Source: Pseudomonadota bacterium (lineage in GTDB: Bacteria > Myxococcota_A > Polyangia > Palsa-1104 > JAEUJZ01). From it: a DNA stretch of 50,851 nt. The stretch lies in the NCBI GenBank assembly GCA_035437965.1, contig DAOMZC010000001.1, positions 1-50,851 on the forward strand. Reading direction: 5' to 3'. Shown here one piece after another: positions 1,909 through 46,763 of this stretch. The translations under genes were made by a program, and so were the position numbers. The notes below the pieces were generated by a model that ran no database searches, was not told the origin of the DNA, and saw nothing but the letters and a program-made list of their open reading frames with translations. Every line of letters starts with the position of its first letter. Position 1 is the stretch's first letter.

Positions 1909-3560
1909 ACATCGTCGAGCTGATCTGGCAGCAGACCCGCGGCAAGCACGAGCGGATTATCGCGGTCGCCCTGGCCGCGGGCCTCGGCAACGCGGCCGCC
2001 CTGCACATCGTCAACACGGCCGCGCAGGCGCCATCCTCTTTAAAGCTCTGGACGTTTTTGGCTTTCGCTTTATCACTTGCGGTATTTTTCAGCGCCGCAA
2101 GCGCGACCTCCCATCGGATAAACGCCGCCATTGAAGAGGCTCTCCACGCCCTGAAGTCGCGGCTCGTCAAAAAGATCGAGCTCACCGAGCTTGCCCGCAT
2201 CGAGCAGATCGGAGCTTCCGAGATTCGCGATCGAATTACCACGAACGTGATGGCGATCGCCAATGCCGGGAGTCAGGTCGGGGGCATCCTGCAGTCTCTA
2301 TCGATCTTCTTCTTTGCCATCCTGTACCTGGCCTGGCTCTCGCTTCCCACCCTCTGCATCCTCGTCGGACTTCAGCTCGGCGTGCTCTATATCTACCGGA
2401 GCCGGCGAACGCTCGTAAATCTCTACCTTGCCGAGCAGGCGCAGACGCGGATCAAGTTTCTCGACCGGCTCATGGATCTGCTCAAGGGCGCAAAGGAAGT
2501 CCGGCTCAATAGCAGCCGCTGTCGCGATATCCTGGCAGACTTCGAAGCTACCTCTTTGACCTTGGGGCAGGTCTCGGCCAAGACCAACCGGGCCTTCGAG
2601 GACAACCTGCTCGTCGTCACGGTCAACCTGTATGTCCTCTTGGCGGCGGTGGTGTACCTGTTGCCAGGCTTTTTCGACCTGCCGCCCGACAAGCTGACCA
2701 AGCTCGTTGCTAGCATCCTCTTTGTCTGGGGGAGCGCGCAGACCGGTCTTGTCGGCTATCTGGCCTATGTCGAGGCAAACCAGGCCCTGGTCGCGATCGC
2801 GACGCTGGAAGAGAAGCTCGATCGTGACGCGTCCCCGCAGGTCGCCGCCGAGGACGAGGGCAGCGTGTGGCCCGGCAGCTCGAGCCTCATCGAGGCGCGG
2901 CAGCTGGAGTACGAGTACCCCGCGGCCCCCGGTGAGACTGCGTTCCATATTGGGCCCATCGATCTTAGGATCGAGCCCGGGGAGCTGGTCTTTGTCGTGG
3001 GCGGAAACGGCGCCGGCAAGTCCACGTTCCTGAAGGTCCTCACGGGCCTGTACCCGCTTACCCGGGGCTCGCTGCGGGTCGGCAGTGTCACCGTAAGGCC
3101 AGACAACATCGCCGCCTACCGCGAGCTGATCTCTGCGATCTTTGCCGACTTCCACCTCTTCTCCAAGCTGTATGGCTTGCTCGATGTGGAGCCGCAGGCC
3201 GTGCAGGGGCTGCTCAAGCAGATGGAGATCGCGCACAAGACTTCATTTGCAGATGGAAGGTTTACGACGCGCAGCCTGTCCACCGGCCAGAAGAAGCGGC
3301 TGGCGATGATCGTCGCCCTCCTTGAAGACCGGCCCATCTTTGTGCTCGACGAGTGGGCCGCGGATCAAGACCCGGAGTTTCGCCGCTACTTCTATGAGAA
3401 CCTGCTCCCTTCTTTGAAGCAGCGCGGCAAGACCATCATCGCGGTCAGCCATGATGACCGCTACTATCACTGCGCCGATCGGGTGGTGTTTCTAGAGTAT
3501 GGGGTCATCCGCTCGATCCAGCAGCTCAAGCCGAGTGATACGGCGCCGGCAGGAGCGTAG
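1902..3560 (+). CDS. Second ABC exporter half-transporter, paralog of the upstream gene; likely heterodimer partner
   Basis: 552 aa. Walker A GGNGAGKST, signature LSTGQKKRLA, Walker B IFVLDEWAADQD, H-loop VSHDDRY. Its ATG overlaps the upstream stop (ATGCTGA at 1902-1908), consistent with translational coupling. Confidence 0.9.
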   Translation: MLNIVELIWQQTRGKHERIIAVALAAGLGNAAALHIVNTAAQAPSSLKLWTFLAFALSLAVFFSAASATSHRINAAIEEALHALKSRLVKKIELTELARIEQIGASEIRDRITTNVMAIANAGSQVGGILQSLSIFFFAILYLAWLSLPTLCILVGLQLGVLYIYRSRRTLVNLYLAEQAQTRIKFLDRLMDLLKGAKEVRLNSSRCRDILADFEATSLTLGQVSAKTNRAFEDNLLVVTVNLYVLLAAVVYLLPGFFDLPPDKLTKLVASILFVWGSAQTGLVGYLAYVEANQALVAIATLEEKLDRDASPQVAAEDEGSVWPGSSSLIEARQLEYEYPAAPGETAFHIGPIDLRIEPGELVFVVGGNGAGKSTFLKVLTGLYPLTRGSLRVGSVTVRPDNIAAYRELISAIFADFHLFSKLYGLLDVEPQAVQGLLKQMEIAHKTSFADGRFTTRSLSTGQKKRLAMIVALLEDRPIFVLDEWAADQDPEFRRYFYENLLPSLKQRGKTIIAVSHDDRYYHCADRVVFLEYGVIRSIQQLKPSDTAPAGA

Positions 3561-3583: not shown

Positions 3584-4918
3584 TCAGGGCTGCGGATCGG
3601 GGCCGGGCTGAAAGTCGGCTCGGCTCAGCAGTCGGGGCGTCACCAGTAGCCCGGCCAGCATGAGCAGCGGGACCATGATGAAAAGGATGGTCGAGCCGGC
3701 GCGTCCAGCGATGAACCCGCCGGCGCCCATGCCGAGGAAGCCGCAGAGCTGCATCAGGCTGTACTGGATCGTGTAGTCGGTGCTGGCGACATGGCCGCGG
3801 CTGCGATCCATGATCATTACATAGATAATCGTTCCGCCCGCAGCCAGTCCAAAGTGAATGAGCAGAATCGACGCAAAGAGCATGAAGTGATTGGCCGCCG
3901 GCCGCGTAATCAGCACCGCCGCGAGCGTCAGACAGACCACGCTCAGCGCATTCAGCGCATAAAAGGCCCGCTCCCGCCCAAGCCGCGACACGACCAGACC
4001 GCCGAGCAAGCCGCCGACGGTGCCGACCGCGCCGCCGAGTATTCCCAGCACGAGGCCGATCTCGGTCAGGTTCAGGCCGCGATCGACAAGCAGAGTCTGA
4101 AAAGCGACGCCGGGCAGCGATGGCAGGGCCAGCGTCGCCGACATCACGGCCAGCCAGCGCCAGATGCGCGGCTGGCTGAAAAAGGCGAGGAAGTCACCCA
4201 GCGAAATGGTGCGCTCCAGAGCGACTGGCGGTTCCTTATAGAAGGCGACCCCGAACAGCGGCAGCAGCACCAGCGCCGCCATGATGAGCAGCGCGGGCTG
4301 CCAGCCAAACTTCCCGACCATGACGACCATCATGCCGCCGCCGACCAGACCCCCGGTCATCATTCCCGCGGTCTGCACGCCGTTGCCGATGCCGCGCTCA
4401 CTGACCTTCAGCAGGTTCACCGCCAGACCGTGGGAAGCCGTATCGGCGGTGGCGGAGATGATGCTGAGCCAGACCAGCGCGGGGATGCCGACAGCGCGCT
4501 GGGTGCTCAAGAGCGCCGGTACATCGATGAACGCTCCCAGTACCAGAGTCAGTAGCAGGAGCGGATGGGTGATGAACAGCCAGCCCCGGTAGCGCCCGAG
4601 CCGCGAGCCCGCGCCCAGCTTGTCCACCAGCGGCGCCCACAGCGCCTTGACCGCCCACGGCAGCATGACCAGCGACAGCAGGCTGATCGCCTCCATCGAG
4701 GCCCCGCTGCGCCGCAGCAGCACGGGCATGGCGCGCGATAGCAGCGCCACCGGCATCATCTCGGTCATGGTGAGGGCAAAGAGAAGTCCGAAGCGAAAGC
4801 CGCGGGAAGCCGACCACGAAGTCTGCCGGTCGGCGTCGCTCGACGCGGCGCGCCCAGGGTGCGCGTGCTCCCCCGGTTCTGCTGAAGTAGCCTGCTGTAG
4901 GGCGATCGGGGTACCCAT
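3584..4918 (-). CDS. MFS permease of the AmpG/RhtX/FptX type
   Basis: 444 aa with about 12 hydrophobic segments. The loop motif KALWAPLVDKLG...RLGRYRGWLF parallels the AmpG signature as I recall it (KFLWSPLMDRY...GRRRGWLL), and ATADTASHG parallels ASQDIVFDA. The same family contains the siderophore permeases RhtX and FptX. Confidence 0.8.
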   Translation of the reverse strand: MGTPIALQQATSAEPGEHAHPGRAASSDADRQTSWSASRGFRFGLLFALTMTEMMPVALLSRAMPVLLRRSGASMEAISLLSLVMLPWAVKALWAPLVDKLGAGSRLGRYRGWLFITHPLLLLTLVLGAFIDVPALLSTQRAVGIPALVWLSIISATADTASHGLAVNLLKVSERGIGNGVQTAGMMTGGLVGGGMMVVMVGKFGWQPALLIMAALVLLPLFGVAFYKEPPVALERTISLGDFLAFFSQPRIWRWLAVMSATLALPSLPGVAFQTLLVDRGLNLTEIGLVLGILGGAVGTVGGLLGGLVVSRLGRERAFYALNALSVVCLTLAAVLITRPAANHFMLFASILLIHFGLAAGGTIIYVMIMDRSRGHVASTDYTIQYSLMQLCGFLGMGAGGFIAGRAGSTILFIMVPLLMLAGLLVTPRLLSRADFQPGPDPQP

Positions 4919-5099: not shown

Positions 5100-8000
5100 T
5101 TAGAACGAGAGCCGCGCGCCGAGCCGCATGTAGAGCGGGGCCTGGTAGGCGGTCGGCTGGCCGTAGTTACTGTTTAGGACCAGCGGCTGGCCTTCCTCGG
5201 CGCGCAGGTGGGCGAGGTCTGCAGCCTTGCCTCCTTTTATCGGGCCGACCACCGAGTAGGTGTAGTCGTCATCGACGCTTACCACCTGCTGCTGGTTTAG
5301 CAGGTTTATCACATCGGCAAAGACCAGCAGCGCGACCCGCTTTGCGAACTTGTGCTCGTAACCGACGTGCAGATCGAGCTGCGTAACGATGGGGGTGCGA
5401 CCCCCGGTGCCGCGCGGCAGAATGAACACCTGGCTCGTTCCATACAGCGGGTGCCCGCCGAGCACGTTGATGGGGCGGCCGGAGAACGCGGTACCGGTAA
5501 GGCTCAGCGTCAAGCTGCCGCTCTGTCCCAGCGGCTGGATATAGGTCCCGAGGAGCTTTACGTTGTGCGGCCGATCGGTGGGGAGCGGGCCGTTGCGGTT
5601 GGCGGCGAGGTCGGGCGAGTCGAACGCCAGGGAGATATTGGGAGCGAAGTCTCTTGTATGCGCGTCGTACGGACCGGGGTAGTTCCCAAGGGTGCGCGAG
5701 AAGGTGTAGCTCGCCAGCACGCTGAAGCGATTCGACAGCCGCTTCTGCGCCGTGAGGACCAGCGCGTGGTAGTTGCGCGTGGCGCGGCTCGTGGTGCTGC
5801 TGATGGCGCGATATCCGGTGAGCTGGCGCTGCACATTCATAAGCTCGGCCTGCGCCGCGGGGCTCTTGTCCTGCTTCAGCTCGGCGATCCGCTGCTCGTA
5901 CTTTTGCACCTGGGCTTCATCGATGGGCGCGCCGGGGTTGCCAAGGATGGCCGCGCCGGTCGCGTCGACCCCCACGTCTTCCACGACGCTGCCGAGGGTC
6001 CGGTAGACATAGCCGACACCGAGCACGAAATCCAGACCGACGTCGTACACAAGGCCGGCCGAGACCTCGTCCAGGTACTGGCCCTTCACGCCCGGCTCGA
6101 CCAGGTAGGGGTCGCCGGCGATCAGGAACTGCGGACTGTTCACCGAGCAGGGGGCGCCCGGCGCTGACTGCGGCACCGGCAGCGGACGCCCGCCCGGGGT
6201 AAGCGGCACGCGCGGGCAGTTCGCGGCGTTTGGTCCCACGATCGCCCCTCGGCCGGCAAAGGCGCGGTCGTTGATGCTCAGCGGCAGCGATTCATAGAAC
6301 CGGCCGTAGCTCGCATACAGCTTGGAGCGGCCCTTTCCCGTCGCGTCGTAAGTGATGCCGAGGCGCGGCGCCAGGTTATCGTAGATGCCGACCTGCCGGC
6401 TGCCGAGCTGGTCGAAGATCTCCTGCGCCTCCCAGCGGAGGCCGGCGTTTACCACCAGACCCGGCACCCAGCCGACGGTCCAGCTGTCGCGCAGATACAG
6501 GCTGACGTTGCGCGTTGCGGTCACCGACCTGTAGCTATCAAGGCGCTCGCCGCTGCCGTCCGCGGCGCGCACTCCGTACTGCTGCGTGCGTCGCAGCCGT
6601 AGGCCATCCGGGCTGGTCTGCCAGGTAGTGTGTCCCGAAAACGGATCCCCGGGATCGAGGTCAGGGCCGGTAGAGAAGCGGTTATTGTCGTAGCTCAGGT
6701 ACTCGAAGTCAGCGCCCAGCTTGAGGGCGTGCGTGCCGCGCAGCGGGTTGTGGCGGCCGCCGGCGCTGACGAACATCGTGGCGCTCGCCAGGAGCTGGTG
6801 GCGCAGCAGCACCGTCAGGCTATAGGGACCGTAGCCCCCCCGCCTGTATTGAGTCAGCGGACAGGGGTTCGACAGGCTGCCATCGGGCAGCGGCTGGCGC
6901 CGGCACTCGGGAACGTCTTCGAAGTCGGACAGGGAGTACGGATCCGCGCGGTCGGCAAAGTAGACAAAGGAAGCCTCGCCCTGGTTTGCCGGCTCTATAT
7001 GCTGGCCCTGATAGTGGAAGCCGTACATCACATCGAGCTGCAGGCGCCGCTCCAGCAGCTTGCCGGTGTAGCGCGCGGACGCATCGTGCTGCTGATTCAG
7101 GGTGCTCACCTGCTTGTCGGGAACGTTGGCGTAAAGGAACGGCCGCAGGACCCCATAACCATAGGACTCGGTTGGCGAGGCGATGTAGCTGAGGGTGATG
7201 TTGTGGTTCGCGCTCAGGTTGAACTGCAGCTTGGCTACTCCGTTATAGAGCCGCGTCGACTCTGTATAAGGCTGGGTGCGGTCGGGCAGCGCAGCGGTCT
7301 CGGTGGCCAGGCTGCCGAGGCCCTGCTGGCAGGTATCGAAGGCCAGATATCCAAGGCGGGTGCAGGGCAGGCTCCGCGGCTGGCCGCTGCTGTCGAGCAC
7401 CTGGCGCCGCACTTCCCGCTCGTGCGCGTCCTGGCTTAGGGTGGGAGCGAAGCCGATGTAGAACCAGATGCGGTCCTTGACGATCGGTCCGCCGAGCTCG
7501 AAGCCGACGTCGAAGCCCAGGGCGCTGCTGCGCGTACGCAGTCCGAGCGACTCACCCAGCCGGGCCACCGTATTGGGCTCCAGCTGGAAGGGGTTTACCG
7601 ACCCGAAGACGCTGCCATGGAACTCGTTGCTGCCGCCCTTGGTGACGATGCTGATGATTCCTCCGGTGGCGCGTCCGTACTCGGCCTGGTAGCCGCTGGT
7701 GATGACGTTGATCTCTTTTATGAAGCTCTGGTGGAGCTGCGTGGCGAGCACGCCGGTGTTCGGATCCGAGGTGTTCAGTCCATCGATGAGGAAGTTGTTC
7801 TCGACCCCGGTGGAGCCCGACAGGGAGACGCCGACATCGCCGCCGAGCCCGCGCGGCGCGTCCACCGCGCCCGGGGCCAGCTGCAGGGCGCTCTCGAAGG
7901 TACGCCCGCGCAGGGCGCTGCTCTGTAGGAGCTCCTGATTAAGCTCCACGCCCGAGCTGGCGCTTGCGGTGTCCACATTGGGCGCCCGCTCGCGGATCAC

Positions 8001-8453
8001 CTGGACCTGCCGCGTCTGTTTCTGCGTGGCTATCTGGACATTGATGGTCAGGGTCTTGTTCTGCCCGATGCGCACGCCGGGGCGCTCGACGACCAGGTCG
8101 GCGAAGTAGAAGCGCACTACGTAGCCGTCGCCGGAGGGCAGCTGGGTGATCAGGTAGCGCCCGTCGCGATCGGTGACCTCGGTCTGCTCGCCCTGCAGCG
8201 CGGGTCCGCTTACGACCACCGTGGTCCCGGCCAGCGGCGCTCCGTCCACGTCGCGCGTCACCAGGCCGCCGATCTGACCCGGCTGCACCTGGGCGCGCGC
8301 TGGGCTCAGCATGAAGAGCACTCCCAGCAGCGTAACCACGCCGAGCGCCGCTGCATCGGCGGCGGGCGCCCCAAGGCGCAGCGACCGGAAGGGTACGATT
8401 TCATTACGTTTAAACCCGAACCGATAAAGAAGGTCAGTTGCCATGGGCGGCAC
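5100..8453 (-). CDS. Oar-type TonB-dependent outer-membrane receptor with an N-terminal carboxypeptidase-regulatory-like domain
   Basis: 1117 aa. Signal-like hydrophobic segment ending ...SPARAQ. Carboxypeptidase-regulatory-like segment (VTRDVDGAPLAGTTVVVSG...TDRDGRYLITQLPSGDGYVV). Plug motifs (ENNFLIDGLNTSDP; INVITSGYQAEYGRATGGIISIVTKGGSNEFHG). Long Gly/Tyr/Asn-rich barrel region and a C-terminal ...LGARLSF aromatic terminus. The start could be Met4 (8444). Confidence 0.85.
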   Translation of the reverse strand: MPPMATDLLYRFGFKRNEIVPFRSLRLGAPAADAAALGVVTLLGVLFMLSPARAQVQPGQIGGLVTRDVDGAPLAGTTVVVSGPALQGEQTEVTDRDGRYLITQLPSGDGYVVRFYFADLVVERPGVRIGQNKTLTINVQIATQKQTRQVQVIRERAPNVDTASASSGVELNQELLQSSALRGRTFESALQLAPGAVDAPRGLGGDVGVSLSGSTGVENNFLIDGLNTSDPNTGVLATQLHQSFIKEINVITSGYQAEYGRATGGIISIVTKGGSNEFHGSVFGSVNPFQLEPNTVARLGESLGLRTRSSALGFDVGFELGGPIVKDRIWFYIGFAPTLSQDAHEREVRRQVLDSSGQPRSLPCTRLGYLAFDTCQQGLGSLATETAALPDRTQPYTESTRLYNGVAKLQFNLSANHNITLSYIASPTESYGYGVLRPFLYANVPDKQVSTLNQQHDASARYTGKLLERRLQLDVMYGFHYQGQHIEPANQGEASFVYFADRADPYSLSDFEDVPECRRQPLPDGSLSNPCPLTQYRRGGYGPYSLTVLLRHQLLASATMFVSAGGRHNPLRGTHALKLGADFEYLSYDNNRFSTGPDLDPGDPFSGHTTWQTSPDGLRLRRTQQYGVRAADGSGERLDSYRSVTATRNVSLYLRDSWTVGWVPGLVVNAGLRWEAQEIFDQLGSRQVGIYDNLAPRLGITYDATGKGRSKLYASYGRFYESLPLSINDRAFAGRGAIVGPNAANCPRVPLTPGGRPLPVPQSAPGAPCSVNSPQFLIAGDPYLVEPGVKGQYLDEVSAGLVYDVGLDFVLGVGYVYRTLGSVVEDVGVDATGAAILGNPGAPIDEAQVQKYEQRIAELKQDKSPAAQAELMNVQRQLTGYRAISSTTSRATRNYHALVLTAQKRLSNRFSVLASYTFSRTLGNYPGPYDAHTRDFAPNISLAFDSPDLAANRNGPLPTDRPHNVKLLGTYIQPLGQSGSLTLSLTGTAFSGRPINVLGGHPLYGTSQVFILPRGTGGRTPIVTQLDLHVGYEHKFAKRVALLVFADVINLLNQQQVVSVDDDYTYSVVGPIKGGKAADLAHLRAEEGQPLVLNSNYGQPTAYQAPLYMRLGARLSF

Positions 8454-8611
8454 AATAGCAGGGGCAAACCGCAGCCTGTAGCCCGTAGATGAATCACGGC
8501 CTTACAGGGCAGCCGGCCGCCAAGCAGAAGTATGGAAGATTTTTGACCGAGAGAACGACAGGCGGGGAGATGGATCTGGCCGCTCGCTTGCGGCGTCCGC
8601 GGACTACGGCT

Positions 8612-9316
8612 TCACAGCGCGGTGGCGCGCAGGCTGGGAACTTCTTGGGCCGGCCTGTAGGTCAGCTCGGACTGGAGGCGATCGAAGAAGCCGACCCACA
8701 GCTTCCACATCTTCTCTGCGTTGCGGATGATCTCGTCCATCTGCGCGGGCGCGAACGTGGCCGTGACTGCCGCATTGGCGCGGACCACGTGCTCGGGCTC
8801 TTGACAGATATGGATGTCGACCCACGGGAGGGCGTCGGCGCCGGTCGTCTTGCGCACCGCGTGGCCGATGCCGGACACCATCGTAAGGTCCGCCACTTCC
8901 GTTCCGTAAAGGAATCCCAGCGCCTCCATGGGCTGCGCGGACGCCTGGGCGTAGCCTTCGAGCAGCTTGCGAGTCTCGGGCAGCGGCGCCGTCTCGGTCA
9001 GCGCCGACTCGGTAAATCCCACTGCGGTCATCGTGTCGACAAAGACCCGCTCATGCGCGAGCTGGGGGTTCCCTTCGCCAAGCTCTTGATACAGAATCTT
9101 CGAGACCTCGGTCTTGGTGTCCTGCCGGGGAAGCACGGAGATTGTCCGCGCCAGGAACACCGGGAAGTAGTGCAGCGGATGCCACCACTGCCCAAGAAAA
9201 GTTCCGGCATCGGCGCGGGTAATCGCAGTGTCGCGGACATGCTGGAAAAAGGGGTGGCAGAGGAGCGCATTCCTGCTCTCTTGGCGAGCGAGGATTTCGA
9301 CGATTCCAGAGCTCAT
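8612..9316 (-). CDS. Heme-oxygenase-like diiron oxidase/oxygenase (HDO; PqqC/TenA/CADD-fold iron-containing redox enzyme)
   Basis: 234 aa. N-terminal LLCHPFFQHV...FLGQWWH is typical of the fold. Candidate metal-ligand motifs are YQELGEGNPQLAHERVF (E..E......H), LYGTEVAD (E) and VDIHICQEPEHV (H....E..H). Confidence 0.7.
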   Translation of the reverse strand: MSSGIVEILARQESRNALLCHPFFQHVRDTAITRADAGTFLGQWWHPLHYFPVFLARTISVLPRQDTKTEVSKILYQELGEGNPQLAHERVFVDTMTAVGFTESALTETAPLPETRKLLEGYAQASAQPMEALGFLYGTEVADLTMVSGIGHAVRKTTGADALPWVDIHICQEPEHVVRANAAVTATFAPAQMDEIIRNAEKMWKLWVGFFDRLQSELTYRPAQEVPSLRATAL

Positions 9317-9324
9317 GAATGTAG

Positions 9325-9365
9325 AGTCTAGTTAAAGTCGGTGACGCTTGACAACTTAAATGTCA
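9325..9365 (-). promoter_or_regulatory. Possible sigma70-like promoter plus palindrome in the 94-bp AT-rich gap upstream of the HDO gene
   Basis: On the minus strand: TTGTCA (9354..9349), an 18-nt spacer, then TAGACT (9330..9325), with the HDO ATG (9316) only 8 nt further on. The palindrome TGACA-n7-TGTCA (9349..9365) overlaps the -35 element. Motif matching only. Confidence 0.25.
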
Positions 9366-9410
9366 TTTTTCTGGCCAAAACGACCCCAATCAGAGGATGG
9401 GTTCAACCAA

Positions 9411-10658
9411 TTACAAGGGATTTACTTCAAACAGGGGAAAGTAGGACTCGATCTTCCCTTCGCAGTACTCCGCGGCGAGCTGTGGAATCTCTTCCCACTT
9501 ATAGACTCTGTCGCCAGCAACCGGGGGACGCCAGTTCATCGCTTCCGCCGCCTGCACTGCCTGCCAGGCTTCGGTGTCGCGCGACCCATGGGTGTTGACG
9601 TGGATGTGGCGGTTTATGCACTCTAGTCCCCGCATGATCGACAGCCGCATGCCGTGCTTCCAGCCCGAAGTCGCAATCACCCCCTGGCGGCCCAGGGCCT
9701 TTAGCGTCGCGCGAAAGACCGGCGCACCGATGTTGTCGATGAAGATGGAGACGCCCTCACCCTGCGTGTGCTCCGCGACCAGGTGTAATAGATACTCCTC
9801 GGCCTCCCGGTAGCGATCGCGGTAGGCTGGATCGCGCTGATAGAGCTCCTCATCGAAAGCCAGGCCCGAGAACCGGCTGCGATCGATGGGCCGGATTCCC
9901 ATCTTCTCGATCAGCGCCAGCCGCTTGGGCGAGGAGCCGATCATCGCCGTCTGGCAGCCGAGCTGCCGCGCCAGCGCGAGCTGCGCCAGCGACACCCCGC
10001 CGCCCCAGCCCCAGACGTGCACCTGTTCCGGCGCGAGCTCGGGCATCTGCGCCCGCCAGCAGCCCCAGGCCACCTTCCAGTTGTCCCAGGCGGTCAGATA
10101 GCGCACCGAAAACGCCGCCCACTCCTGCGCCGTGAAGGTAGAGTGTCCGGGCAGCGGAATCAGGCAGCGCGCCGGCATCTTGCTCTGCTTGGCCAAAAGC
10201 CCGATCGTGCCCGGCGCGTCGAAGCCCAGGACCTTGAGCGTATAGCCGTGCTTGTCCTTGATCACGTTCCCATCAAGGAGGCACAGGTCCCCGGCCTTCA
10301 CCGAAGTGACCGCGGCGCCGGGGCGCAAGACGCGCACGACGCCGGAGTTCCCGATCACCACCGAGCCCTCCTGCCGCAGGCGGCAGATATCCACCGGGCT
10401 GCGCTGCAGCGCGTGGCTCATGTTGGCTTCCCAGCAGCCATAGATCGGCTCGACCAGGACTTCGTCGGGGGTGATATTGGGAAAGCTGAACTGCTCACGC
10501 TTTAGCTGCGCGCTCTGCGGGTCCGCGCCGTTCCCTTGCCCCTGATAGAGGACCCAGGCTTCTGTCGTAATCTTGTTCAGGGTCGAGCTGTGGCTCGTCA
10601 CGGTGGGTCCCCAGTTACCTTGAGGCGCCGGCGATTTGTATTTGGCGCTAGATGTCAT
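9411..10658 (-). CDS. MDR-superfamily oxidoreductase, crotonyl-CoA carboxylase/reductase-like in length and motif pattern
   Basis: 415 aa. GroES-like N-domain segment (DEVLVEPIYGCWEANMSH...VIGNSGVVRVLRPGAAVTSVKAGDLC). Nucleotide-binding segment VHVWGWGGGVSLAQLALARQLG, which resembles the CCR pattern IWGASGGLGS..A.QFA as I recall it. The ATG lies inside the last 11 nt of the sulfotransferase gene. Confidence 0.7.
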   Translation of the reverse strand: MTSSAKYKSPAPQGNWGPTVTSHSSTLNKITTEAWVLYQGQGNGADPQSAQLKREQFSFPNITPDEVLVEPIYGCWEANMSHALQRSPVDICRLRQEGSVVIGNSGVVRVLRPGAAVTSVKAGDLCLLDGNVIKDKHGYTLKVLGFDAPGTIGLLAKQSKMPARCLIPLPGHSTFTAQEWAAFSVRYLTAWDNWKVAWGCWRAQMPELAPEQVHVWGWGGGVSLAQLALARQLGCQTAMIGSSPKRLALIEKMGIRPIDRSRFSGLAFDEELYQRDPAYRDRYREAEEYLLHLVAEHTQGEGVSIFIDNIGAPVFRATLKALGRQGVIATSGWKHGMRLSIMRGLECINRHIHVNTHGSRDTEAWQAVQAAEAMNWRPPVAGDRVYKWEEIPQLAAEYCEGKIESYFPLFEVNPL

Positions 10659-11880
10659 AGTTTAGCTGTCTCGCAACTTGCACCGTCATCGAGTGCAGCG
10701 GCTGAGGGGGCTTGGGCTGCTGAACGCGGGCGAGCTCCGGCTGGATCCGCTGGCGCTGCTGCAGGCCGGGGTCGCCGACCCCATCGAGCATGCGCTCACC
10801 CTGGTAGGGGTTGAGGACCGCCGGATCGAACTCGACGCCGAGGAAGCTGCAGACCCTGCGCATCACCGGCTCTGGACTCTGCACGAGCTCCTCGTAGCGC
10901 ACCCAGTGCTGACGGGCTTCAGGGATGGTGGCGAGGAAGGTCAGGGCGTTCTGGGTGTAGATCGCCCACAGCTTTTCGGCAAAGAGGAAGGGGTTGTCAT
11001 CCCAGAAGCCGAACCAGTTCTGCAGCCAGCGGTTGAAGCGGTTGCGCACCATCGACTCCAGGACCGGGTAGGGGTGGCGCCCGATGAAAAGATACTTCGG
11101 CTGCGCGAACATCTGCTCGGCGCGCTGCAGCCAGCCCACGTGCGCCTGGTAAAGGGGCGACTTGTCGACCACCAGCCGTCCCCCGGCGCGCTCGCCGAGC
11201 CGCGCGTAGACCTCGGCCATCGGCAGGTTCTGCGCTTCAAGCTCGCCGACCTGCCGCTCCGCCTCCTCGTACGTAACGCGGCCCAGGTGCATGAACGCCT
11301 GCGGCAGACCCGTGTGAAACCCATCCACCCCCGCCTCGCGCAGCTCCTGCCGCTTGGCGCCCAGGGTGTCGAAGGGCAGCAGGTTCAGCTCCGGTGGAGA
11401 GAACAACGCCGGGTGCCCGGTCAGCATCGCGCGCAGGAGCGTCGTTCCCGAGCGCGGTGGACCCAGCAGGAACACCGCTGTAGGCCGCGCCTCTCCGGCC
11501 GTATCAGGGGGATACGGCGCGGGCGGCTTGAAGGTCCAGGTGCCCCCTTCATGGGGATCCGCGTACCCGGCCGCAGGGGCAGGGGGCTGGATCTCGCTGA
11601 TGATGTAAGTCGCGAGCTCGCGCAGCGTAGTCCTTCCGGCCAGCTCCGCCGGCATCAGCCACAGACCGAGCTTCTCATGAAGCCGCGGCAACAGCTCGTC
11701 CGCCAAGACCGTGGGGTCTTGCCATGCGGCCTTGATTTCAGCAAATGCAGCAGTCGGTGCCACCGCCGCCGCCGGCCTATCCGCAAGCTCCGCCGCCCAG
11801 GCCGGCAGGTGCGTCAGCAGGAGCTCCGTGGCGTCGGCCCGGGGCAGGGTGCGGAGCTTTTCGTAAAGGTCTCTGCTCAT
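10648..11880 (-). CDS. PAPS-dependent sulfotransferase of the CurM/OLS 'activating ST' type, with an N-terminal carrier-protein-like domain
   Basis: 410 aa. 5'-PSB loop LLGPPRSGTTLLRAMLTGHPALFSPPELNLLPF. Also VVDKSPLY, a 3'-PB-like FIGRHPYPVLESMVR, and RYEELV...LNPYQGERM. This order and wording match my recollection of the CurM ST domain. The ATG is 1 nt after the TAG of the TE gene. Confidence 0.85.
   Translation of the reverse strand: MSRDLYEKLRTLPRADATELLLTHLPAWAAELADRPAAAVAPTAAFAEIKAAWQDPTVLADELLPRLHEKLGLWLMPAELAGRTTLRELATYIISEIQPPAPAAGYADPHEGGTWTFKPPAPYPPDTAGEARPTAVFLLGPPRSGTTLLRAMLTGHPALFSPPELNLLPFDTLGAKRQELREAGVDGFHTGLPQAFMHLGRVTYEEAERQVGELEAQNLPMAEVYARLGERAGGRLVVDKSPLYQAHVGWLQRAEQMFAQPKYLFIGRHPYPVLESMVRNRFNRWLQNWFGFWDDNPFLFAEKLWAIYTQNALTFLATIPEARQHWVRYEELVQSPEPVMRRVCSFLGVEFDPAVLNPYQGERMLDGVGDPGLQQRQRIQPELARVQQPKPPQPLHSMTVQVARQLNYDI
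11581..11838 (-). other. Degenerate (serine-less) carrier-protein-like domain at the N-terminus of the sulfotransferase
   Basis: ST residues about 15-100. WQDPTVLADELLPRLHEKLGLWLMPAELAGRTTLRELATYI aligns with one gap to the ACP of the 2582-aa PKS in this window ([40 protein letters not shown]). The phosphopantetheine Ser position reads Pro (DS -> DP). Confidence 0.5.
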
Positions 11881-11881
11881 G

Positions 11882-14335
11882 CTAGTTTCCCAGCCTGGCT
11901 CTGCTCAGGCACTCCGAGAGCTTCGCTGCCACTACCTGAATGTGCGGCTCGCCGATGAAGGTCATGTGGTTGCCGGGCACCCGGTGAATCTCCGGCTCGA
12001 CCTGCAGCGCGTCCCACCCCAGCTTCTCGCTGCGGGTGTCGTTTTCCCAATCGGTGGCGCGGAAGATTATGGCGCGCATGGGGACGACATCCTTGGGCTC
12101 GTAAGGCATCTGCAGCTGCAGCTTGAAGACCTCGAGCAGGTGGCGGGCGGTGGTCACTTCTTCACCCGAGGCCATGATGTTATTGGCGCGCAGCCAGCCG
12201 GCAAACTGCGCCCACTGGGCCTCGGCATCCGGCGAGCTCGGGGGCTCATAGGGGGCGACGATCTTGTCGGCCAGGACCTCTTCGAAGGTGACTACATACT
12301 CGGCAATCCACTGCGCGGTGGTCTCGTGCTGCAGGCGCTTTACCAGGTGCGGCGCCTCGGTATCGAACAGGATGAGGCACGCCACCTGCTCACCGGCCTT
12401 GAGCAGCCGCTGGGCCATCTCGTAGGCGATAAAGCTGCCGAACGAGTGGCCGCCAAGATAGTACGGGCCGTGCGGCTGCAGGCGCTTGATCGCGGCCAGG
12501 AAGTGCGCGGCCATGGCCTCGACGGTGGTGTGCGGGCTGCTCTGTCCATCGAGCCCTGCGGCCTGCAGACCATAAAACGGCTGCTCCGGATCCATGTAGC
12601 GGGCCAGATAGTACATGTAGAAGATCGTCCCGCCGGCCCCCGGCGCCAGGAAGAACGGAGGCTTGCTGCCATTTGGCTGCACCGGGACCAGCGCCGAAAA
12701 GAGAGCGTCCGCGCTCTGTCCCTTGACCACATCTTGAATCAGCTTCGCCAGTCCGACGATCGTCGGGTTCAGGAGCAGCGCCGAGATCGGGAGCTGAATC
12801 CCAAACTGCTGACGGATCTGGCCGACCAGCCGGATGGCCAGCAGCGAGTGACCGCCGAAGTCATAGAAGTTATCGTGCGTACTTACAGAGGGCAGGTTGA
12901 AAAGCTTCTGCCACAGCTGCACGAGCGCCTGCTCGACCGCGTTGAGCGGCGGCACAAACTGGCGGGCGGTCGCCGCCCGCACGGGCGCCGCCGCAACGGG
13001 CGGAACCTCGCCCTGCGGAATCGTCTGTATGAGCGCGCCCAGAGAACGGTCGGCGACCGCCGCCGCGAGAAGGTTCTTCAGGTGAAGAGCGAGCCGCTCG
13101 ACATCGGCGGCCGTAAACGCGGCCCGGCTGTAGACGAACTTTACGTGCAGCCCCTCGTGCGGGAACACCGTGATGGTCAGCGGATACTGGGTCTGGGCGC
13201 CGATCGAGCGGACATCGCTTACCGTAAACGGCTGACCTGCTGCGGGCGCGGTCGGCAGCGGATAATTTTCAAAGACCAGCAGGCTGTCGTAAAGCCGGAA
13301 GGTGGGGGGAACTTTGCTCCACTGGTGGATCTGGCCGGCGGCAGCGTACTCGTAGCTCTGCTGCTCCAGGGTCTGGGCGGCCAGCGCCTGCAGCCAGAGT
13401 GAAAGAGTCTGCTCCGGTTTTACTTCTACCCGCAGCGGCACCGTGTTGATAAACAGACCGACCATGGTCTCGACGCCCGGCAGCGCCGCCGGACGGCCCG
13501 AGACCGTGATCCCGAAGAGGACCTCCGCGGCCCCGCTGTAGCGGGCCAGCAGCAGGGCCCACGCCCCTTGCATCACCGTACTCAGGGTCACCTGGCTCTG
13601 CCGCGCCAGCGTGCGCAGTTCTTGCAGCAGGCTCGCCGGCAAGAGCAGCTCGTGGTCACCAAAGCCGGTCGCTTCCGCGGGCTCAAGCCGCGCCGGAGCC
13701 AGCGGCGTGGGGCCGCGGAAGCCCTGCAGGCGCTTGCGCCAGAACGCTTCGGTCAGCGCCGTGTCCTGCCGCTGCAGCCAGCCTACATACTCGCTGTACG
13801 GACGTACAGGCGGCAGGCGTAGCGCGCGGCCGGCGCACTCTGCCAGGTAGACCTCGTGCACCTCGCGCAGCACGATCGGCAGCGCCCAGCCATCGAGCAG
13901 GATGTGGTGCGTGGTCCAGACGGCCTGATAGCTCTGCTCACCAAGCTGCAAGATCGCCAGCCGCATCAGCGGCACCTTGCCCAGGTTGAAGCCGAGCACC
14001 CGATCGGCGCGCAGAAACTCTTCAAGCCGCTGCGCGCTTTCCGCCGGGGAAGCGGCGCGCCAGTCCTGCCAGGAAATCTGCAGCCCCGGCTGCCGCAATA
14101 CAAACTGCAGCGGCTCGGGCTGATCCTTCCACAAAAAGCCGGTGCGCAAGCCCGAGTGGCGCATAAGGATCTGCTGCCACGCCCGCTCATAAGCGGGCCG
14201 ATTCAAGACGCCTTGCCACTGCCAGAGAAACTGTTCGATCTGGCGACCCGAAGCGGGGAAAGCCAGCGTCTCGAGCAGCATCCCCTGCTGCGAAGGAGTC
14301 AGCGGATATAACGCTTCGACCGGATTGGTGCTCAT
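11882..14335 (-). CDS. NRPS termination protein C-T-TE, without an adenylation domain
   Basis: 817 aa. C domain (YPLTPSQQGML, HHILLDGWA; about 13031..14335). Only about 27 residues later comes the T domain (FYDFGGHSLLAIRL, Ser497; about 12731..12952). The TE follows (GGHSFGS Ser631, PGNHMTF His790; about 11885..12673). No A-domain core motifs (TSGSTGxPKG, YGPTE, YxTGD) anywhere in the ORF. Confidence 0.9.
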   Translation of the reverse strand: MSTNPVEALYPLTPSQQGMLLETLAFPASGRQIEQFLWQWQGVLNRPAYERAWQQILMRHSGLRTGFLWKDQPEPLQFVLRQPGLQISWQDWRAASPAESAQRLEEFLRADRVLGFNLGKVPLMRLAILQLGEQSYQAVWTTHHILLDGWALPIVLREVHEVYLAECAGRALRLPPVRPYSEYVGWLQRQDTALTEAFWRKRLQGFRGPTPLAPARLEPAEATGFGDHELLLPASLLQELRTLARQSQVTLSTVMQGAWALLLARYSGAAEVLFGITVSGRPAALPGVETMVGLFINTVPLRVEVKPEQTLSLWLQALAAQTLEQQSYEYAAAGQIHQWSKVPPTFRLYDSLLVFENYPLPTAPAAGQPFTVSDVRSIGAQTQYPLTITVFPHEGLHVKFVYSRAAFTAADVERLALHLKNLLAAAVADRSLGALIQTIPQGEVPPVAAAPVRAATARQFVPPLNAVEQALVQLWQKLFNLPSVSTHDNFYDFGGHSLLAIRLVGQIRQQFGIQLPISALLLNPTIVGLAKLIQDVVKGQSADALFSALVPVQPNGSKPPFFLAPGAGGTIFYMYYLARYMDPEQPFYGLQAAGLDGQSSPHTTVEAMAAHFLAAIKRLQPHGPYYLGGHSFGSFIAYEMAQRLLKAGEQVACLILFDTEAPHLVKRLQHETTAQWIAEYVVTFEEVLADKIVAPYEPPSSPDAEAQWAQFAGWLRANNIMASGEEVTTARHLLEVFKLQLQMPYEPKDVVPMRAIIFRATDWENDTRSEKLGWDALQVEPEIHRVPGNHMTFIGEPHIQVVAAKLSECLSRARLGN

Positions 14336-31855: not shown

Positions 31856-31863
<8 letters not shown>
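23875..31863 (-). CDS. Hybrid PKS/aminotransferase/NRPS: KS-AT-ACP-AMT-C-A-T (Pro-like code)
   Basis: The longest ORF starts at 31914. The ATG at 31863 (MSDKTAVYERL..., a coiled-coil docking helix) is preferred because it overlaps the upstream stop as ATGAGTGA and has GGAG 12 nt upstream. KS (DTACSSS, ETHGTGT, NIGHTEAAAG; about 30490..31761). AT (GHSLGE, VAAH; about 29275..30183). ACP (EMGGDSVQLA; about 28780..29022). AMT (about 27115..28332). C (HHIVGDGWS; about 25780..27081). A (VYVIYTSGSTGVPKGV, NHYGPTE, YKTGD, SGKVDR; about 24190..25722). T (FFDLGGHSLLLTQI; about 23935..24141). Code DVQFIAHLAK. Confidence 0.92.
27115..28332 (-). other. Class-III PLP-dependent aminotransferase domain embedded between the ACP and the C domain
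   Basis: FCNSGTEAVLTAIRLAR, LISDEILMGFRV and ATYGKLIGGGLPIGA (HemL-like PLP-lysine motif). It is preceded by a Gln/Ala-rich helical linker (IERIVNQQLQAMSQLMAQQLAAL). The placement matches that in MycA/ItuA/McyE-type beta-amino-forming modules. Confidence 0.85.
29581..29592 (-). other. AT3 substrate-motif position reading VAAH, not HAFH or YASH
   Basis: The minus-strand codons gtt gcc gcg cac give AISVAAHSPLMEP. The two upstream ATs read SHAFHSPLMEP at the same position. Confidence 0.8.
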
Positions 31864-39600
<7,737 letters not shown>

Positions 39601-46397: not shown

Positions 46398-46763
46398 CTA
46401 CTCGGCCTTATCTCGGGCGCGCTTGCGCAGGTCACGCTGGTGTTCACGGCTGCTGGCGCCGCGCGGGGAGCTCGGCGCGGGGGAGTCGTCAGCCGCCGGG
46501 GCCTGCTCGGCGGGGAGGAAGCACTTTTCATAGGCCCGGCACAGATCGTCCACGGTGCGGATGCTGGTTACCGGCACCAGGTTGGCAAATGGATCCGCGT
46601 CCAGCTCGATCTCGATGATCGCGACGATGCGCGCCAGATCAAGCGACTTGAAGCCGATGTCTTCGACCAGGGTGTGGTGCGCGACGATGCGGTCGGCGGG
46701 GATCGATCTTTCTTGCGCGACGCGCTGGAGGGCGGCGAACACCGCCTGGGCTACATGTTTCAT
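46398..46763 (-). CDS. Free-standing acyl carrier protein with a charged C-terminal tail
   Basis: 121 aa. Carrier-protein serine motif EDIGFKSLDLARIV. A roughly 40-aa Pro/Ala/Arg/Asp-rich tail. The stop is 2 nt from the ATG of the first PKS gene. Confidence 0.8.
   Translation of the reverse strand: MKHVAQAVFAALQRVAQERSIPADRIVAHHTLVEDIGFKSLDLARIVAIIEIELDADPFANLVPVTSIRTVDDLCRAYEKCFLPAEQAPAADDSPAPSSPRGASSREHQRDLRKRARDKAE

Follow-up and report, generated by a model that had tools for sequence, protein, structure and literature searches.

Heme-oxygenase-like dimetal oxidases (HDOs) number more than 10,000, of which about a dozen have a known reaction (PMC13108848), and amino acids are the substrates of most of the characterized enzymes (PMC13185094; PMC13108848). 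BesC, the 4-chloro-allylglycine synthase of Streptomyces cattleya (PDB 7TWA), is a stand-alone, substrate-triggered enzyme of ~250 aa that takes a free amino acid and yields a noncanonical residue, and PolF (PDB 9J28, 9PRR), an azetidine synthase/desaturase with L-Ile and L-Val as substrates, makes a cyclic imino acid from a free aliphatic amino acid. UndA (PDB 6P5Q, 4WWJ) decarboxylates fatty acids and is triggered via the carboxylate of its substrate. The N-oxygenases SznF, RohS, and HrmI/BelK act on amino acids or their derivatives; SznF and RohS are of the substrate-independent 3-His/4-carboxylate (3H/4C) type, in which a seventh ligand on auxiliary helix 2 (SznF E189, RohS E98) lies 26 residues ahead of the first glutamate (PMC13133933; PMC13108848). 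CtCADD and NePabS (PDB 8VA9, 9PJ4) are self-sacrificing p-aminobenzoate synthases, FlcD (PDB 8W1Q/3BJD) is a mononuclear, methine-excising HDO, and MboA is a peptide acetylenase encoded in the mangotoxin ATP-grasp cluster, an HDO of a small-peptide pathway.

The window, that is, the whole stretch of DNA that was analyzed (50,851 nucleotides), contains an HDO gene at 8612–9316 on the minus strand (ATG 9314–9316, stop 8612–8614, from the open reading frame call and its translation) that encodes a protein of 234 aa. The position, the length, the co-orientation with the PKS/NRPS genes, and the distance of 94 bp past the operon agree with the original prediction, in which the strand had to be corrected to minus. 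The gene is real and lies far above chance by its score with the family profile (see below), its 680 database homologues at E <= 1e-3, and a GC3 of 0.80 that resembles the other genes of the window; an overlapping plus-strand reading frame (8489–9331, 280 aa) was rejected as a high-GC artefact. The 94-bp spacer that separates the HDO gene from the preceding oxidoreductase gene (9317–9410, minus strand) is AT-rich, with 42.6% GC against 66.4% for the window, and may possibly provide the HDO gene with a promoter of its own. The single sigma70-like match of the scanned region (TTGTCA-18-TAGACT) falls within this spacer, although one match against 0.5 expected is not above chance.

The Pfam profile PF14518 matches residues 40–207 with 86.7 bits (gathering cut-off 28.9, E = 2.1e-24), and the AlphaFold (AF2) model is an all-helical, seven-helix bundle predicted with high confidence (pLDDT 92.2, pTM 0.87). 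A Foldseek comparison of the model gave a probability of 1.00 and TM scores of 0.70–0.79 to CADD, PolF, BesC, UndA, HrmI, and TenA; the best structural matches, to metal-bound HDO structures, are CADD, PolF, BesC, UndA, and HrmI, and PqqC is a further structural neighbor. The metal ligands predicted by alignment are E78-x9-H88, E140, and H169-x3-E173-x2-H176, six positions that correspond in alignments to the ligands of BesC, FlcD, and HrmI. The first pair is located in core helix 1, within the motif ILYQELGEGNPQLAHER (residues 74–90, 9047–9097, minus strand; E78 at 9083–9085, H88 at 9053–9055), where E81 and E89 are also invariant. Core helix 2 (LGFLYGTEVADLTMV, 8876–8920, minus strand) carries the bridging-type ligand E140 (8897–8899), which aligns with the glutamate of the "yadE" motif of BesC, together with invariant Y137, T139, and D143. 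Core helix 3 (LPWVDIHICQEPEHV, 8786–8830, minus strand) carries H169 (8810–8812), E173 (8798–8800), and H176 (8789–8791), which align with the corresponding H/E/H of BesC. None of the six ligands varies among 25 sequences, and the motifs in which they lie are conserved in 84 sequences of the clade described below. The assignment to the HDO family in the original prediction is borne out by the profile score, the invariant ligand positions, and the confident model, and each of the motifs quoted in its support (the helix 1 motif, LYGTEVADL at residues 136–144, and VDIHICQEPEH at residues 166–176) was found in the translation.

Could the protein be something other than a dimetal oxidase, namely a metal-free protein of the TenA/PqqC type, a heme oxygenase proper, a mononuclear enzyme like FlcD, or a p-aminobenzoate synthase like CADD? 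TenA, PqqC, and CADD are among its structural neighbors, relatives are annotated as "PqqC" by JGI, and there are weak matches to the TenA (PF03070, 20.0 bits) and CADD (TIGR04305, 37.8 bits) profiles. However, these scores fall below the respective cut-offs of 22 and 200, no canonical heme-oxygenase Pfam profile matches, and the complete E/H/E/H/E/H set is invariant, so that the TenA/PqqC alternative raised with the original prediction fails. CtCADD and NePabS do resemble the HDO in size and fold (TM 0.75–0.78), and 9PJ4 aligns over the full length (E = 2.3e-7), but they belong to folate rather than peptide biosynthesis. An invariant phenylalanine of the clade, F24, aligns with the tyrosine of the "hPFy" motif of 9PJ4, which we take to be the sacrificial residue. 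The first-helix motif of FlcD is very similar (GELGEEDEKGSH against QELGEGNPQLAH) and has the same E-x9-H spacing; FlcD aligns, however, with the N-terminal half of the HDO only and has V278 and R281 in place of E173 and H176. Since these two ligands are kept and the E-H-X-H-V-R motif of the FlcD type is absent, the HDO should be dinuclear. A non-dimetal protein is therefore very improbable, and the gene is predicted to encode a 3-His/3-carboxylate (3H/3C) HDO, most likely a diiron enzyme.

By sequence comparison, no characterized HDO is an equivalog of the protein, the identities being at most 23%. Of the solved structures, BesC matches best in sequence (E = 2.3e-10 with a profile of the clade, 20–23% identity, TM ~0.74) and shares the stand-alone architecture, the approximate size, and a 3H/3C site that lacks the seventh glutamate. 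It differs in the first ligand pair (E-x6-H in the alignment, against E-x9-H here), in the absence of the signature helix FLGQWWHPLHYFP of the HDO clade, in the NCBIfam equivalog model NF042919, with which the HDO reaches 32.3 bits (cut-off 500), and in genomic context, as no halogenase or Bes pathway genes were found near the HDO gene. PolF shares the fold (TM 0.70–0.77) and makes the type of product that a Pro-like adenylation (A) domain could load, but the profile match is weak and limited to the C-terminal 60 residues (E ~0.1), the identity is 16–19%, and the context of PolF is a nucleoside-peptide rather than an NRPS pathway. UndA (TM 0.70–0.72) is a 3H/3C enzyme with a phenylalanine at the position of the seventh ligand; it lacks a sequence-level match to the HDO, its pocket is hydrophobic, and its product loses the carboxylate and could therefore not be loaded on an assembly line. 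HrmI aligns over residues 16–115 (TM 0.74–0.79) with a weak sequence match (E = 0.05). The E-x9-H pair of the HDO recurs in FlcD (E181/H191), the HDO domain of SznF (E215/H225), and RohS (E124/H134) (PMC11363339; PMC13133933). HrmI/BelK share this spacing as well, but SznF, RohS, and HrmI/BelK are larger or multi-domain proteins (337–470 aa). [quoted passage not shown]

The auxiliary helix 2 segment FLGQWWHPLHYFPVFL (9152–9199, minus strand), a signature of the clade, places F51 and P52 at the site of SznF E189 and RohS E98. Position 52, 26 residues ahead of E78, is a proline inside an invariant HYFP, BesC L85/P86 align opposite F51/P52, and no Asp or Glu occurs at residues 37–61 in any subclade; the HDO thus lacks the seventh glutamate that defines the 3H/4C N-oxygenases. 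The absence of acidic residues in this stretch together with the invariant HYFP points to an enzyme of the substrate-triggered type. It also speaks against N-oxygenation of the SznF/RohS kind, but HrmI is a 3H/3C N-oxygenase, so this chemistry would still be available to the HDO. Further invariant polar residues of the clade are Q43, H46, H49, K68, T69, R155, and Q172, in addition to those of core helices 1 and 2; their abundance suggests a polar substrate. The helices aux-2 and aux-4 are also rich in invariant aromatic residues.

The HDO belongs, by sequence, to a small, discrete, conserved, and unstudied branch of the family, in which roughly 20,000 dimetal HDOs are predicted; the branch is present in at least six phyla at ~50% identity. 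Its members are proteins of ~230 aa whose active-site motifs are invariant, and those of Acidobacteriota, Myxococcota, Dyella, Paraburkholderia, Microcoleus, and Eisenbacteria share 47–57% identity. The branch is sequence-tight (60 cluster representatives out of 1.84 billion at E <= 1e-30). Literature searches for PF14518 yielded no paper on this clade. NRPS/PKS domains are located within 6 kb of the HDO gene in 55 of the 67 loci (82%) that have 6 kb on both sides, in several phyla and in differing arrangements, although the loci are phylogenetically nonindependent and many derive from related Acidobacteriota. The HDO gene is located at the start of the NRPS gene in 86 out of 94 NRPS-linked loci, either divergent from a FAAL-C-A-T protein or just upstream of a starter condensation (C) domain, whereas in the window it follows the end of the assembly line. 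A clustering of the neighboring reading frames in 87 loci revealed no universal protein partner except the NRPS; the other partners are lineage-specific (esterase, MFS, Zn-ADH, CmlA-like, LLM, and SDR/MT/DegT). A special type of C domain beside the HDO was also considered and rejected, as the domains are generic LCL-like.

Upstream of the HDO gene, the window contains three genes on the minus strand at the end of the assembly line: a terminal C-T-TE protein that lacks an A domain (11882–14335, Pfam), a stand-alone sulfotransferase of the CurM/OLS type (10648–11880, 410 aa with a 125-aa N-terminal extension, Pfam Sulfotransfer_3), and a CCR-like MDR oxidoreductase (9411–10658, 415 aa) that matches Pfam ADH_zinc_N and, weakly, crotonyl-CoA reductase and looks like a trans-acting acyl/enoyl reductase. 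The next gene downstream of the HDO (5100–8453) encodes an outer-membrane protein similar to TonB-dependent receptors (CarboxypepD_reg, Plug, and beta-barrel). In a close relative (locus L093) the MDR and HDO genes (97% and 95% identity) and the receptor are kept; in L088 the MDR-HDO pair (90% and 94%) is followed by adk; and in L003 the order TE-ST-MDR-HDO (75%, 70%, 75%, and 66%, the HDO gene being inverted) is followed by DUF697/MACPF genes. The genes on the cluster side of the HDO are thus conserved while those downstream change in L088 and L003, which supports the HDO as a part of the PKS/NRPS cluster, at its edge. The link to the assembly line that had been proposed originally is strengthened by this synteny and by the NRPS association of the clade. 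The MDR is no obligate partner of the HDO: its family also occurs without one, beside ligase/ammonia-lyase or ACAD/ACP/PKS genes.

An alternative is that the HDO is a conserved stand-alone enzyme whose gene just happens to border the operon; it might, for example, serve general metabolism or, together with the TonB-dependent receptor, a metabolism related to iron. Corallococcus orthologues are located among housekeeping genes outside any biosynthetic gene cluster, the AT-rich spacer suggests a separate promoter, and the receptor gene is indeed directly downstream, as had been noted from the window, and kept in L093. This adjacency is, however, lost in L088 and L003, and homologues of the TonB-dependent receptor, MFS, and ABC genes were absent from 171 other loci apart from L093. 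Because the adjacency persists only in a near-identical relative it should not be read as functional, the receptor probably lies outside the cluster, and its use as a siderophore link was rejected. Given the persistence of the MDR-HDO pair and the NRPS/PKS linkage of most fully flanked loci across phyla, a stand-alone role is improbable.

Another reading starts from the neighboring C-T-TE protein: the HDO would make or modify a unit on the T domain that has no cognate A domain, maybe together with the sulfotransferase and the TE in a decarboxylative, alkene-forming termination. The order C-T-TE, ST, MDR, HDO is kept in L003, the end of which is 75% identical to the C-terminus of the C-T-TE protein of the window, the sulfotransferase is strongly CurM/OLS-like (CurM ST 4gbm, 223.6 bits; 4gox, 207 bits), and UndA and BesC are HDOs able to make terminal alkenes. 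But the TE is of the ordinary NRPS type without a CurM-TE match, for which reason a CurM-like decarboxylative termination was rejected, and the leaving group could come from the sulfotransferase chemistry alone; for any alkene-forming or decarboxylation chemistry in the cluster, the sulfotransferase is a competing candidate. Relatives of the HDO are moreover widespread in clusters whose modules are complete and which contain no CurM-type sulfotransferase. The protein without an A domain invoked in the original prediction is present, but the clade is not tied to such domains, and an involvement of the HDO there seems highly doubtful.

The reading that we favor, with a probability of about 0.4, is that a free precursor with a carboxylate, probably an amino acid, is bound by the HDO, which would convert it into a nonproteinogenic residue, possibly for a Pro-like A domain of the assembly line. 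The original prediction held that the role could not be decided from the sequence alone, and the present estimate concurs. As in the substrate-triggered enzymes UndA, BesC, and AetD, the free substrate would be bound by its carboxylate, which would complete the coordination of the Fe(II)2 center and let O2 form a peroxo-Fe(III)2 intermediate; this intermediate would oxidize a C-H (or N-H) bond near the carboxylate, leading to desaturation, hydroxylation, cyclization, or C-C cleavage. That the substrate would be a free amino acid, and the product a nonproteinogenic residue passed to the assembly line, is less certain and is suggested by the settings near the closest subclade. In one locus (P0015) the HDO gene adjoins a GntG-family PLP aldolase (298 bits, cut-off 230), an L-amino-acid ligase of the ATP-grasp type, and an enzyme resembling proline hydroxylases; in a second (P0005) the HDO occurs with MbtH, another such hydroxylase-like enzyme (137 bits to L-proline cis-3-hydroxylase 1e5r), a carbamoyltransferase, and an NRPS; and a third (L054) contains a GNAT, a weak ATP-grasp match, and an amidase. 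The Corallococcus orthologues outside a cluster and the position of the window gene after the end of the line, unlike the 86 loci above, count against this reading.

The proposed acceptor is the Pro-like A domain (24211–25683, minus strand, code DVQFIAHLA, from Pfam and code extraction) of the KS-AT-ACP-AMT-C-A-T hybrid, in which case the product, joined to the beta-amino acyl chain, would be a proline-type or cyclic imino acid. In 12 further loci, drawn from three other subclades of the HDO, the first module next to the HDO has the near-identical code DVQF(I/V)AQLA, and the A domains there share 47–53% identity with that of the window. A survey of 10-kb flanks, however, does not link the HDO to one A-domain specificity, as five code classes occur in the first A domain beside it: Pro-like (12 loci), DIWHFGFIS-type (13), cationic-type D(A/T)ED (17), Ala-like (~16), and Val-like (7). 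Since the codes vary while the active-site motifs are conserved, a clade-wide proline-type product for the first module fails, unless the cognate module is located outside the 10-kb flanks. A homologue search and an exact-DNA scan of metagenome contigs for the complete Thermoanaerobaculia NRPS (6311 aa), aimed at a Pro-like module further downstream, did not recover it, and literature searches on DVQFIAHLA, DVQFIAQLA, and related Pro codes found nothing useful. A 4-methylproline-type pathway, with the HDO as hydroxylase and the MDR as dehydrogenase, is weakened by the occurrence of the MDR family without an HDO.

The variable codes beside a conserved active site also make the acyl part a possible common denominator, and the HDO may instead oxidize a free carboxylic-acid starter or fatty acid (e.g., alpha/beta hydroxylation or desaturation), bound by its carboxylate as in UndA, before activation by a ligase or FAAL for lipo-initiation. 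The location at the initiation end of the NRPS gene agrees with such a role, and acyl-activating enzymes recur: the Thermoanaerobaculia loci have a FAAL domain, with an esterase after the HDO, Dyella and Microcoleus have ligases of 545 and 513 aa, respectively, and the window has a 474-aa ligase with an SDR and an ACP. The cultured strains D. choica, D. tabacisoli, and D. silvatica have a compact form of the cluster (DegT, ST-like, SDR, MT, HDO, an NRPS of 2–3 modules, and a ligase). The Dyella cluster (DegT aminotransferase, SDR, HDO, and ligase) could turn a beta-oxidized acid into a beta-amino acid, and both the abundant aromatics of aux-2 and aux-4 and the structural neighborhood of UndA would suit an acyl substrate. 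The many invariant polar residues are nevertheless unlike the hydrophobic pocket of UndA, which has no sequence-level match to the HDO, the ATP-grasp, GntG, and proline-hydroxylase settings are without lipid logic, and the window has PKS modules that build the acyl chain and an in-line aminotransferase domain (AMT) for the beta-amine. Oxidation of a starter acid is judged unlikely, with odds of about one in five.

Somewhat less likely still is a tailoring of the assembled intermediate or released product, by N-oxygenation of the beta-amino group, a modification considered in the original prediction and for which HrmI offers a 3H/3C precedent, or by oxidation of the C-terminal residue, as in MboA, which acts on a tripeptide with a free C-terminus. 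A released linear lipopeptide would present a free carboxylate, the HDO gene of the window adjoins the termination genes, and loci of the Eisenbacteria type have the HDO, along with a MupA-type LLM, after a PKS module and ahead of the C domain that follows. The active site is, however, invariant while the peptide sequences and termini are highly variable, and auxiliary helix 2 offers no acidic residue at the seventh-glutamate site. The in-line AMT makes a beta-amino group evident for the window, whereas DegT and SDR make one only possible for Dyella-type clusters, and an aminotransferase was seen in no other lineage.

More broadly, and tentatively, with the balance leaning against it, the whole clade may catalyze an undescribed HDO reaction on one common free precursor, the product of which would be a widespread, unrecognized building block at the lipid-peptide junction of many lipopeptides of uncultured bacteria, including the beta-amino-acyl lipopeptide of the window. 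Desaturation/cyclization to a proline-type imino acid and beta/gamma oxidation of a carboxylic acid are examples of such a reaction. Most HDOs with a known reaction perform unprecedented chemistry on amino or fatty acids, and the present clade, in Acidobacteriota, Myxococcota, Proteobacteria, Cyanobacteria, and candidate phyla, recurs together with NRPS initiation modules and with peptide pathways of the ATP-grasp type. It therefore represents a well-defined target for function finding, in which solving a single member would probably identify a noncanonical building block and annotate hundreds of gene clusters.

The HDO gene is an ATG-initiated ORF encoding 234 aa (8612..9316), and its translation contains the motifs ILYQELGEGNPQLAHER, LYGTEVADL and VDIHICQEPEH on which the original prediction of a heme-oxygenase-like diiron oxidase (HDO) drew; the strand can now be given as minus. 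An overlapping plus-strand ORF (8489..9331) was rejected as a high-GC artefact. GC3 in the minus-strand frame is 0.80, similar to the neighbor genes, and the encoded protein has 680 database homologues. The proposed 94-bp distance and downstream TonB-dependent receptor gene were both found as well: an oxidoreductase gene (MDR, CCR-like, 9411..10658) ends 94 bp upstream of the HDO gene and a gene for a TonB-dependent-receptor-like outer-membrane protein (5100..8453) begins 158 bp downstream, all on the minus strand. The 94-bp MDR–HDO spacer (9317-9410) has a GC content of 42.6% compared with 66.4% for the window and holds the sole sigma70-like match of the scanned region (TTGTCA-18-TAGACT), which is not above chance, and no obvious Shine-Dalgarno sequence precedes the HDO ATG. 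The spacer may be an internal promoter and the HDO gene may form a transcription unit of its own.

The assignment to the HDO family held up, with a Pfam PF14518 (Haem_oxygenas_2) match of 86.7 bits (cut-off 28.9), a complete ligand set and a confident all-helical model, and the protein is a bona fide member of the superfamily. The match to PF03070 (TenA/PqqC) stays under the cut-off (20.0 vs. 22 bits) and all NCBIfam matches are subthreshold (CADD, 37.8 vs. 200; BesC, 32.3 vs. 500). The closest sequence match among solved structures is BesC (E = 5e-7, 2e-10 with the clade profile), followed by the Nitrosomonas-type PABA synthase, FlcD and HrmI. An AlphaFold2 model with 25 clade sequences as input (pLDDT 92.2, pTM 0.87) has CADD-like proteins, CtCADD, PolF, BesC, UndA, HrmI and TenA as Foldseek neighbors (TM 0.70-0.79, identity 13-23%). 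Ligands were assigned through HMMER alignments and the published ligand maps of FlcD (PMC11363339) and RohS (PMC13133933). The full canonical set is predicted, to which core helix 1 contributes E78-x9-H88, core helix 2 contributes E140 and core helix 3 contributes H169-x3-E173-x2-H176; the six positions are invariant in the 25 sequences and the ligand-bearing motifs are conserved in 84 clade sequences. With this ligand set, a protein that is not a dimetal oxidase is hardly credible.

The N-oxygenases SznF and RohS carry a seventh Glu on auxiliary helix 2 (SznF E189, RohS E98; PMC13133933), whereas the window HDO has no acidic residue at this place but an invariant HYFP (F51/P52), and UndA and AetD (Phe) and BesC (Leu) are likewise non-acidic there. 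The mononuclear FlcD has V278 and R281 in place of the last two ligands, both of which the window HDO keeps, and the 'hPFy' tyrosine of PABA synthase 9PJ4, presumed to be sacrificial, aligns with the invariant Phe F24. The six ligands and the missing seventh Glu argue for a 3-His/3-carboxylate (3H/3C) HDO, as judged by alignment, and by ligand set the protein most resembles the stand-alone 3H/3C enzymes BesC, UndA, AetD and PolF. Membership in the BesC, CADD/PABA synthase, SznF/RohS-type, FlcD-type and TenA/PqqC subfamilies was rejected in each case. None of the approximately one dozen characterized HDOs in a 2026 review (PMC13108848) falls inside the clade of the window HDO, and the literature search found no paper on this clade or on the A-domain codes described below.

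A search for homologues yielded hundreds of equally long proteins (~230-240 aa) with 50-57% identity to the window HDO and only a handful of nearer ones (93%, 82%, 65% and 63%). Because so few members turned up when 1.84 billion cluster representatives were searched with a profile (60 at E <= 1e-30, 120 at E <= 1e-10), the clade represents a compact, discrete subfamily. The 172 loci analyzed come from genomes and metagenomes, and the window's own genome lies outside the GTDB representatives. The clade is found in the Acidobacteriota (Thermoanaerobaculia, Angelobacter, Sulfotelmatobacter, Holophagales), the Myxococcota (Corallococcus, Pyxidicoccus, Citreicoccus, Kofleriaceae, Polyangiaceae), Dyella, Rudaea, Paraburkholderia, Microcoleus, Candidatus Eisenbacteria, Polarisedimenticolia and one Streptosporangiaceae MAG. 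Every subclade keeps the motifs GQWWHPLH(Y/F)FP.FL, E(L/V)GEG..(R)AHE, LGF.YGTEVADL.MV, LPWV.IH..QEP.H and MW.LW..FF, and this conservation of the active site speaks for a single substrate and reaction shared by the whole clade.

In the window, all cluster genes from the ligase to the HDO gene are located on the minus strand. An acyl/aryl-CoA-ligase-like enzyme (FadD13/aryl-CoA-ligase-like, 474 aa, 47637-49061), an SDR (46836-47624) and a stand-alone ACP between the SDR and the first PKS gene (121 aa, IGFKSLDLARIV, 46398-46763, absent from the 150-aa ORF list) form a starter-unit cassette. These are followed by two PKS modules (KS-AT-DH-cMT-KR-ACP and KS-AT-DH-cMT-ER-KR-ACP), a KS-AT-ACP-aminotransferase(class III)-C-A-T hybrid (23875-31914), two NRPS modules (dock-C-A-T-E and C-A-T-E), a C-T-TE protein without an A domain and a stand-alone sulfotransferase (ST) of the CurM/OLS "activating" type (10648-11880, 223.6 bits to the CurM ST, PDB 4gbm). 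The 125-aa N-terminal extension of the ST has no Pfam match and by eye looks like a degenerate carrier domain (LGLWLMPAEL, no Ser). The TE was rejected as a CurM-TE type and is an ordinary NRPS TE. Profile alignment gave the A-domain codes DVQFIAHLA (Pro-like), DLTKVGEVG (Asx) and DAFFLGVTF (Ile/Val-like), with an E-like domain after each of the latter two modules and the A-less C-T-TE last. The hybrid is predicted to join a beta-amino acyl chain to the Pro-like residue. Tailoring of an intermediate or product by the HDO, this beta-amino group included, is doubtful, and an action at the A-less T/ST/TE terminus is very improbable.

The MDR-HDO order is kept in loci L093 (HDO 95% identical) and L088 (94%), and locus L003 (66%) keeps TE-ST-MDR with the HDO gene inverted. 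The downstream genes differ (adk/CTP-transferase in L088, DUF697/MACPF in L003) and the start of the TonB-dependent receptor gene is kept only in the near-identical L093. Since the synteny persists while the downstream genes change, the HDO counts as a cluster gene, which makes an HDO without a role in it quite improbable; the receptor probably lies outside. The MDR family is large and also occurs without an HDO, adjoining ligase/ammonia-lyase or ACAD/ACP/PKS genes, and the MDR is probably a trans-acting acyl/enoyl reductase rather than an obligate partner of the HDO. The 94% identity in L088 (1098-1802) covers residues 1-157 only and the sequence diverges thereafter, which may reflect recombination or an assembly chimera. 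The window cluster is flanked by the TonB-dependent protein, which is Oar-like (CarboxypepD_reg, Plug and barrel), an MFS transporter (3584-4918, minus strand) and two ABC ATPase/permease genes (262-3560, plus strand); apart from the receptor start in L093, only single weak ABC matches to these flanking genes were found beside HDO genes in other loci.

Across the clade, NRPS/PKS domains lie within 6 kb of the HDO gene in 55 of the 67 loci whose flanks reach 6 kb or more on each side, and the HDO gene faces an NRPS gene start in 86 of 94 NRPS-linked loci, counts that are inflated by relatedness although the association recurs, differently arranged, in several phyla. The fully flanked loci that lack such domains within 6 kb comprise nine Corallococcus genomes, L054, L067 and the ATP-grasp locus L089. 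In Thermoanaerobaculia, the HDO gene and FAAL-(T)-C-A-T are divergently oriented. In Dyella, Kofleriaceae and Angelobacter, the HDO gene precedes a starter C-A-T by 60-200 bp, and it is placed between a PKS module with a MupA-type luciferase-like monooxygenase (LLM) and the next C-A-T in Eisenbacteria-type loci. The adjoining C domains are generic and the remaining neighbors vary by lineage. Acyl-activating enzymes in most clusters and the preference for the initiation end keep oxidation of a free starter or fatty acid as the main rival reading, unlikely as it is.

Several lineage-specific neighborhoods were observed. An FMN-dependent LLM of the MupA/Atu3671 family (431 bits in L091) lies directly upstream of the HDO gene, between the PKS module and the next C-A-T, in L091, L092, L107, L112, L122, L124, L131, L136, L140, L148, L154, L157, L158 and L160; the following A code is DIWHFGFIS in most readable loci (DIWFFGLIS in L112) and resembles arylglycine codes. 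At least 20 Thermoanaerobaculia-type loci (e.g., L005 10778-11434, L094-L121) carry a ~220-aa Abhydrolase_2-type esterase convergent directly after the HDO gene, which may be part of the HDO unit or mark the cluster border. In Angelobacter-type loci, a 545-aa protein with a metallo-beta-lactamase-like HxHxDH motif (e.g., L045 7936-9573), a 366-aa Zn-dependent alcohol dehydrogenase (e.g., L049 12477-13577) and an MFS transporter are found beside the HDO; from length and motif the former may be CmlA-like, and NCBIfam gives a weak metal-dependent-hydrolase match. The compact cluster of Dyella choica (L076; DegT aminotransferase, ST-like, SDR, methyltransferase, HDO, NRPS and ligase) contains a putative Phage_capsid ORF (HK97-fold, encapsulin-like, 6424-7320, 39.8 bits) that partly overlaps a long ST-like ORF call. 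Corallococcus spp. (L059-L070, L073) carry a 51%-identical orthologue in non-biosynthetic surroundings (M28 peptidase, hypothetical, HDO, PhoU_div, PHO4 phosphate transporter, with a radical SAM protein and a fatty-acid desaturase farther away), and the related copy in Pyxidicoccus (L077) is linked to an NRPS.

Three homologues, P0003 (ST-MDR context), P0005 and P0015, group with the window HDO in an NJ tree. The P0005 gene has MbtH on one side and a proline-hydroxylase-family enzyme on the other (137 bits to L-proline cis-3-hydroxylase 1e5r; TIGR04531, "non-proteinogenic amino-acid hydroxylase"), adjoined by a carbamoyltransferase and an NRPS. P0015 is encoded in an operon that lacks an NRPS and includes a GntG-family PLP aldolase (298 bits, cut-off 230), an L-amino-acid ligase of the ATP-grasp type and a proline-hydroxylase-like enzyme (45% identical), and L054 has a GNAT, a weak ATP-grasp match and a penicillin-amidase-family protein as neighbors. 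All three contexts suggest chemistry on free amino acids or small peptides. Within the window's wider subclade, penicillin-amidase genes (Ntn-hydrolase, PvdQ-like) occur 3-5 kb from the HDO gene (L001 4509-6944, L054 13794-16250) and may encode maturation enzymes that remove an acyl chain.

The preferred reading, at a probability of about 0.4, is that the HDO is an amino-acid-modifying enzyme. Characterized 3H/3C HDOs are mostly substrate-triggered. In the proposed mechanism, the carboxylate of the free substrate would complete the diferrous site, activation of O2 would yield a peroxo-diferric species, oxidation would take place close to the carboxylate and the assembly line would use the product. 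The window code DVQFIAHLA is nearly identical to DVQF(I/V)AQLA, the code of the first HDO-adjacent module at 12 loci of three other subclades (Dyella/Kofleriaceae, Pyxidicoccus and Sulfotelmatobacter-type), and the A domains of these modules are its top matches (47-53% identity). The DVQFIAHLA module as the specific acceptor is nevertheless less probable than amino-acid modification in general, and the variety of first-module codes in the remaining subclades (DIWH(F/L)GFIS-type in 13 loci, cationic-type D(A/T)ED....S in 17, Ala-like in ~16 and Val-like in 7) counts against a universal proline-type product.

Finding an HDO in a biosynthetic cluster is in itself unsurprising. A tight, widespread, NRPS-wired and uncharacterized HDO clade has now been delimited and provides a concrete target for functional work, with NRPS-linked copies in the cultured hosts Dyella, Pyxidicoccus and Microcoleus and an orphan copy in Corallococcus, and the chemistry of these enzymes may well be new.
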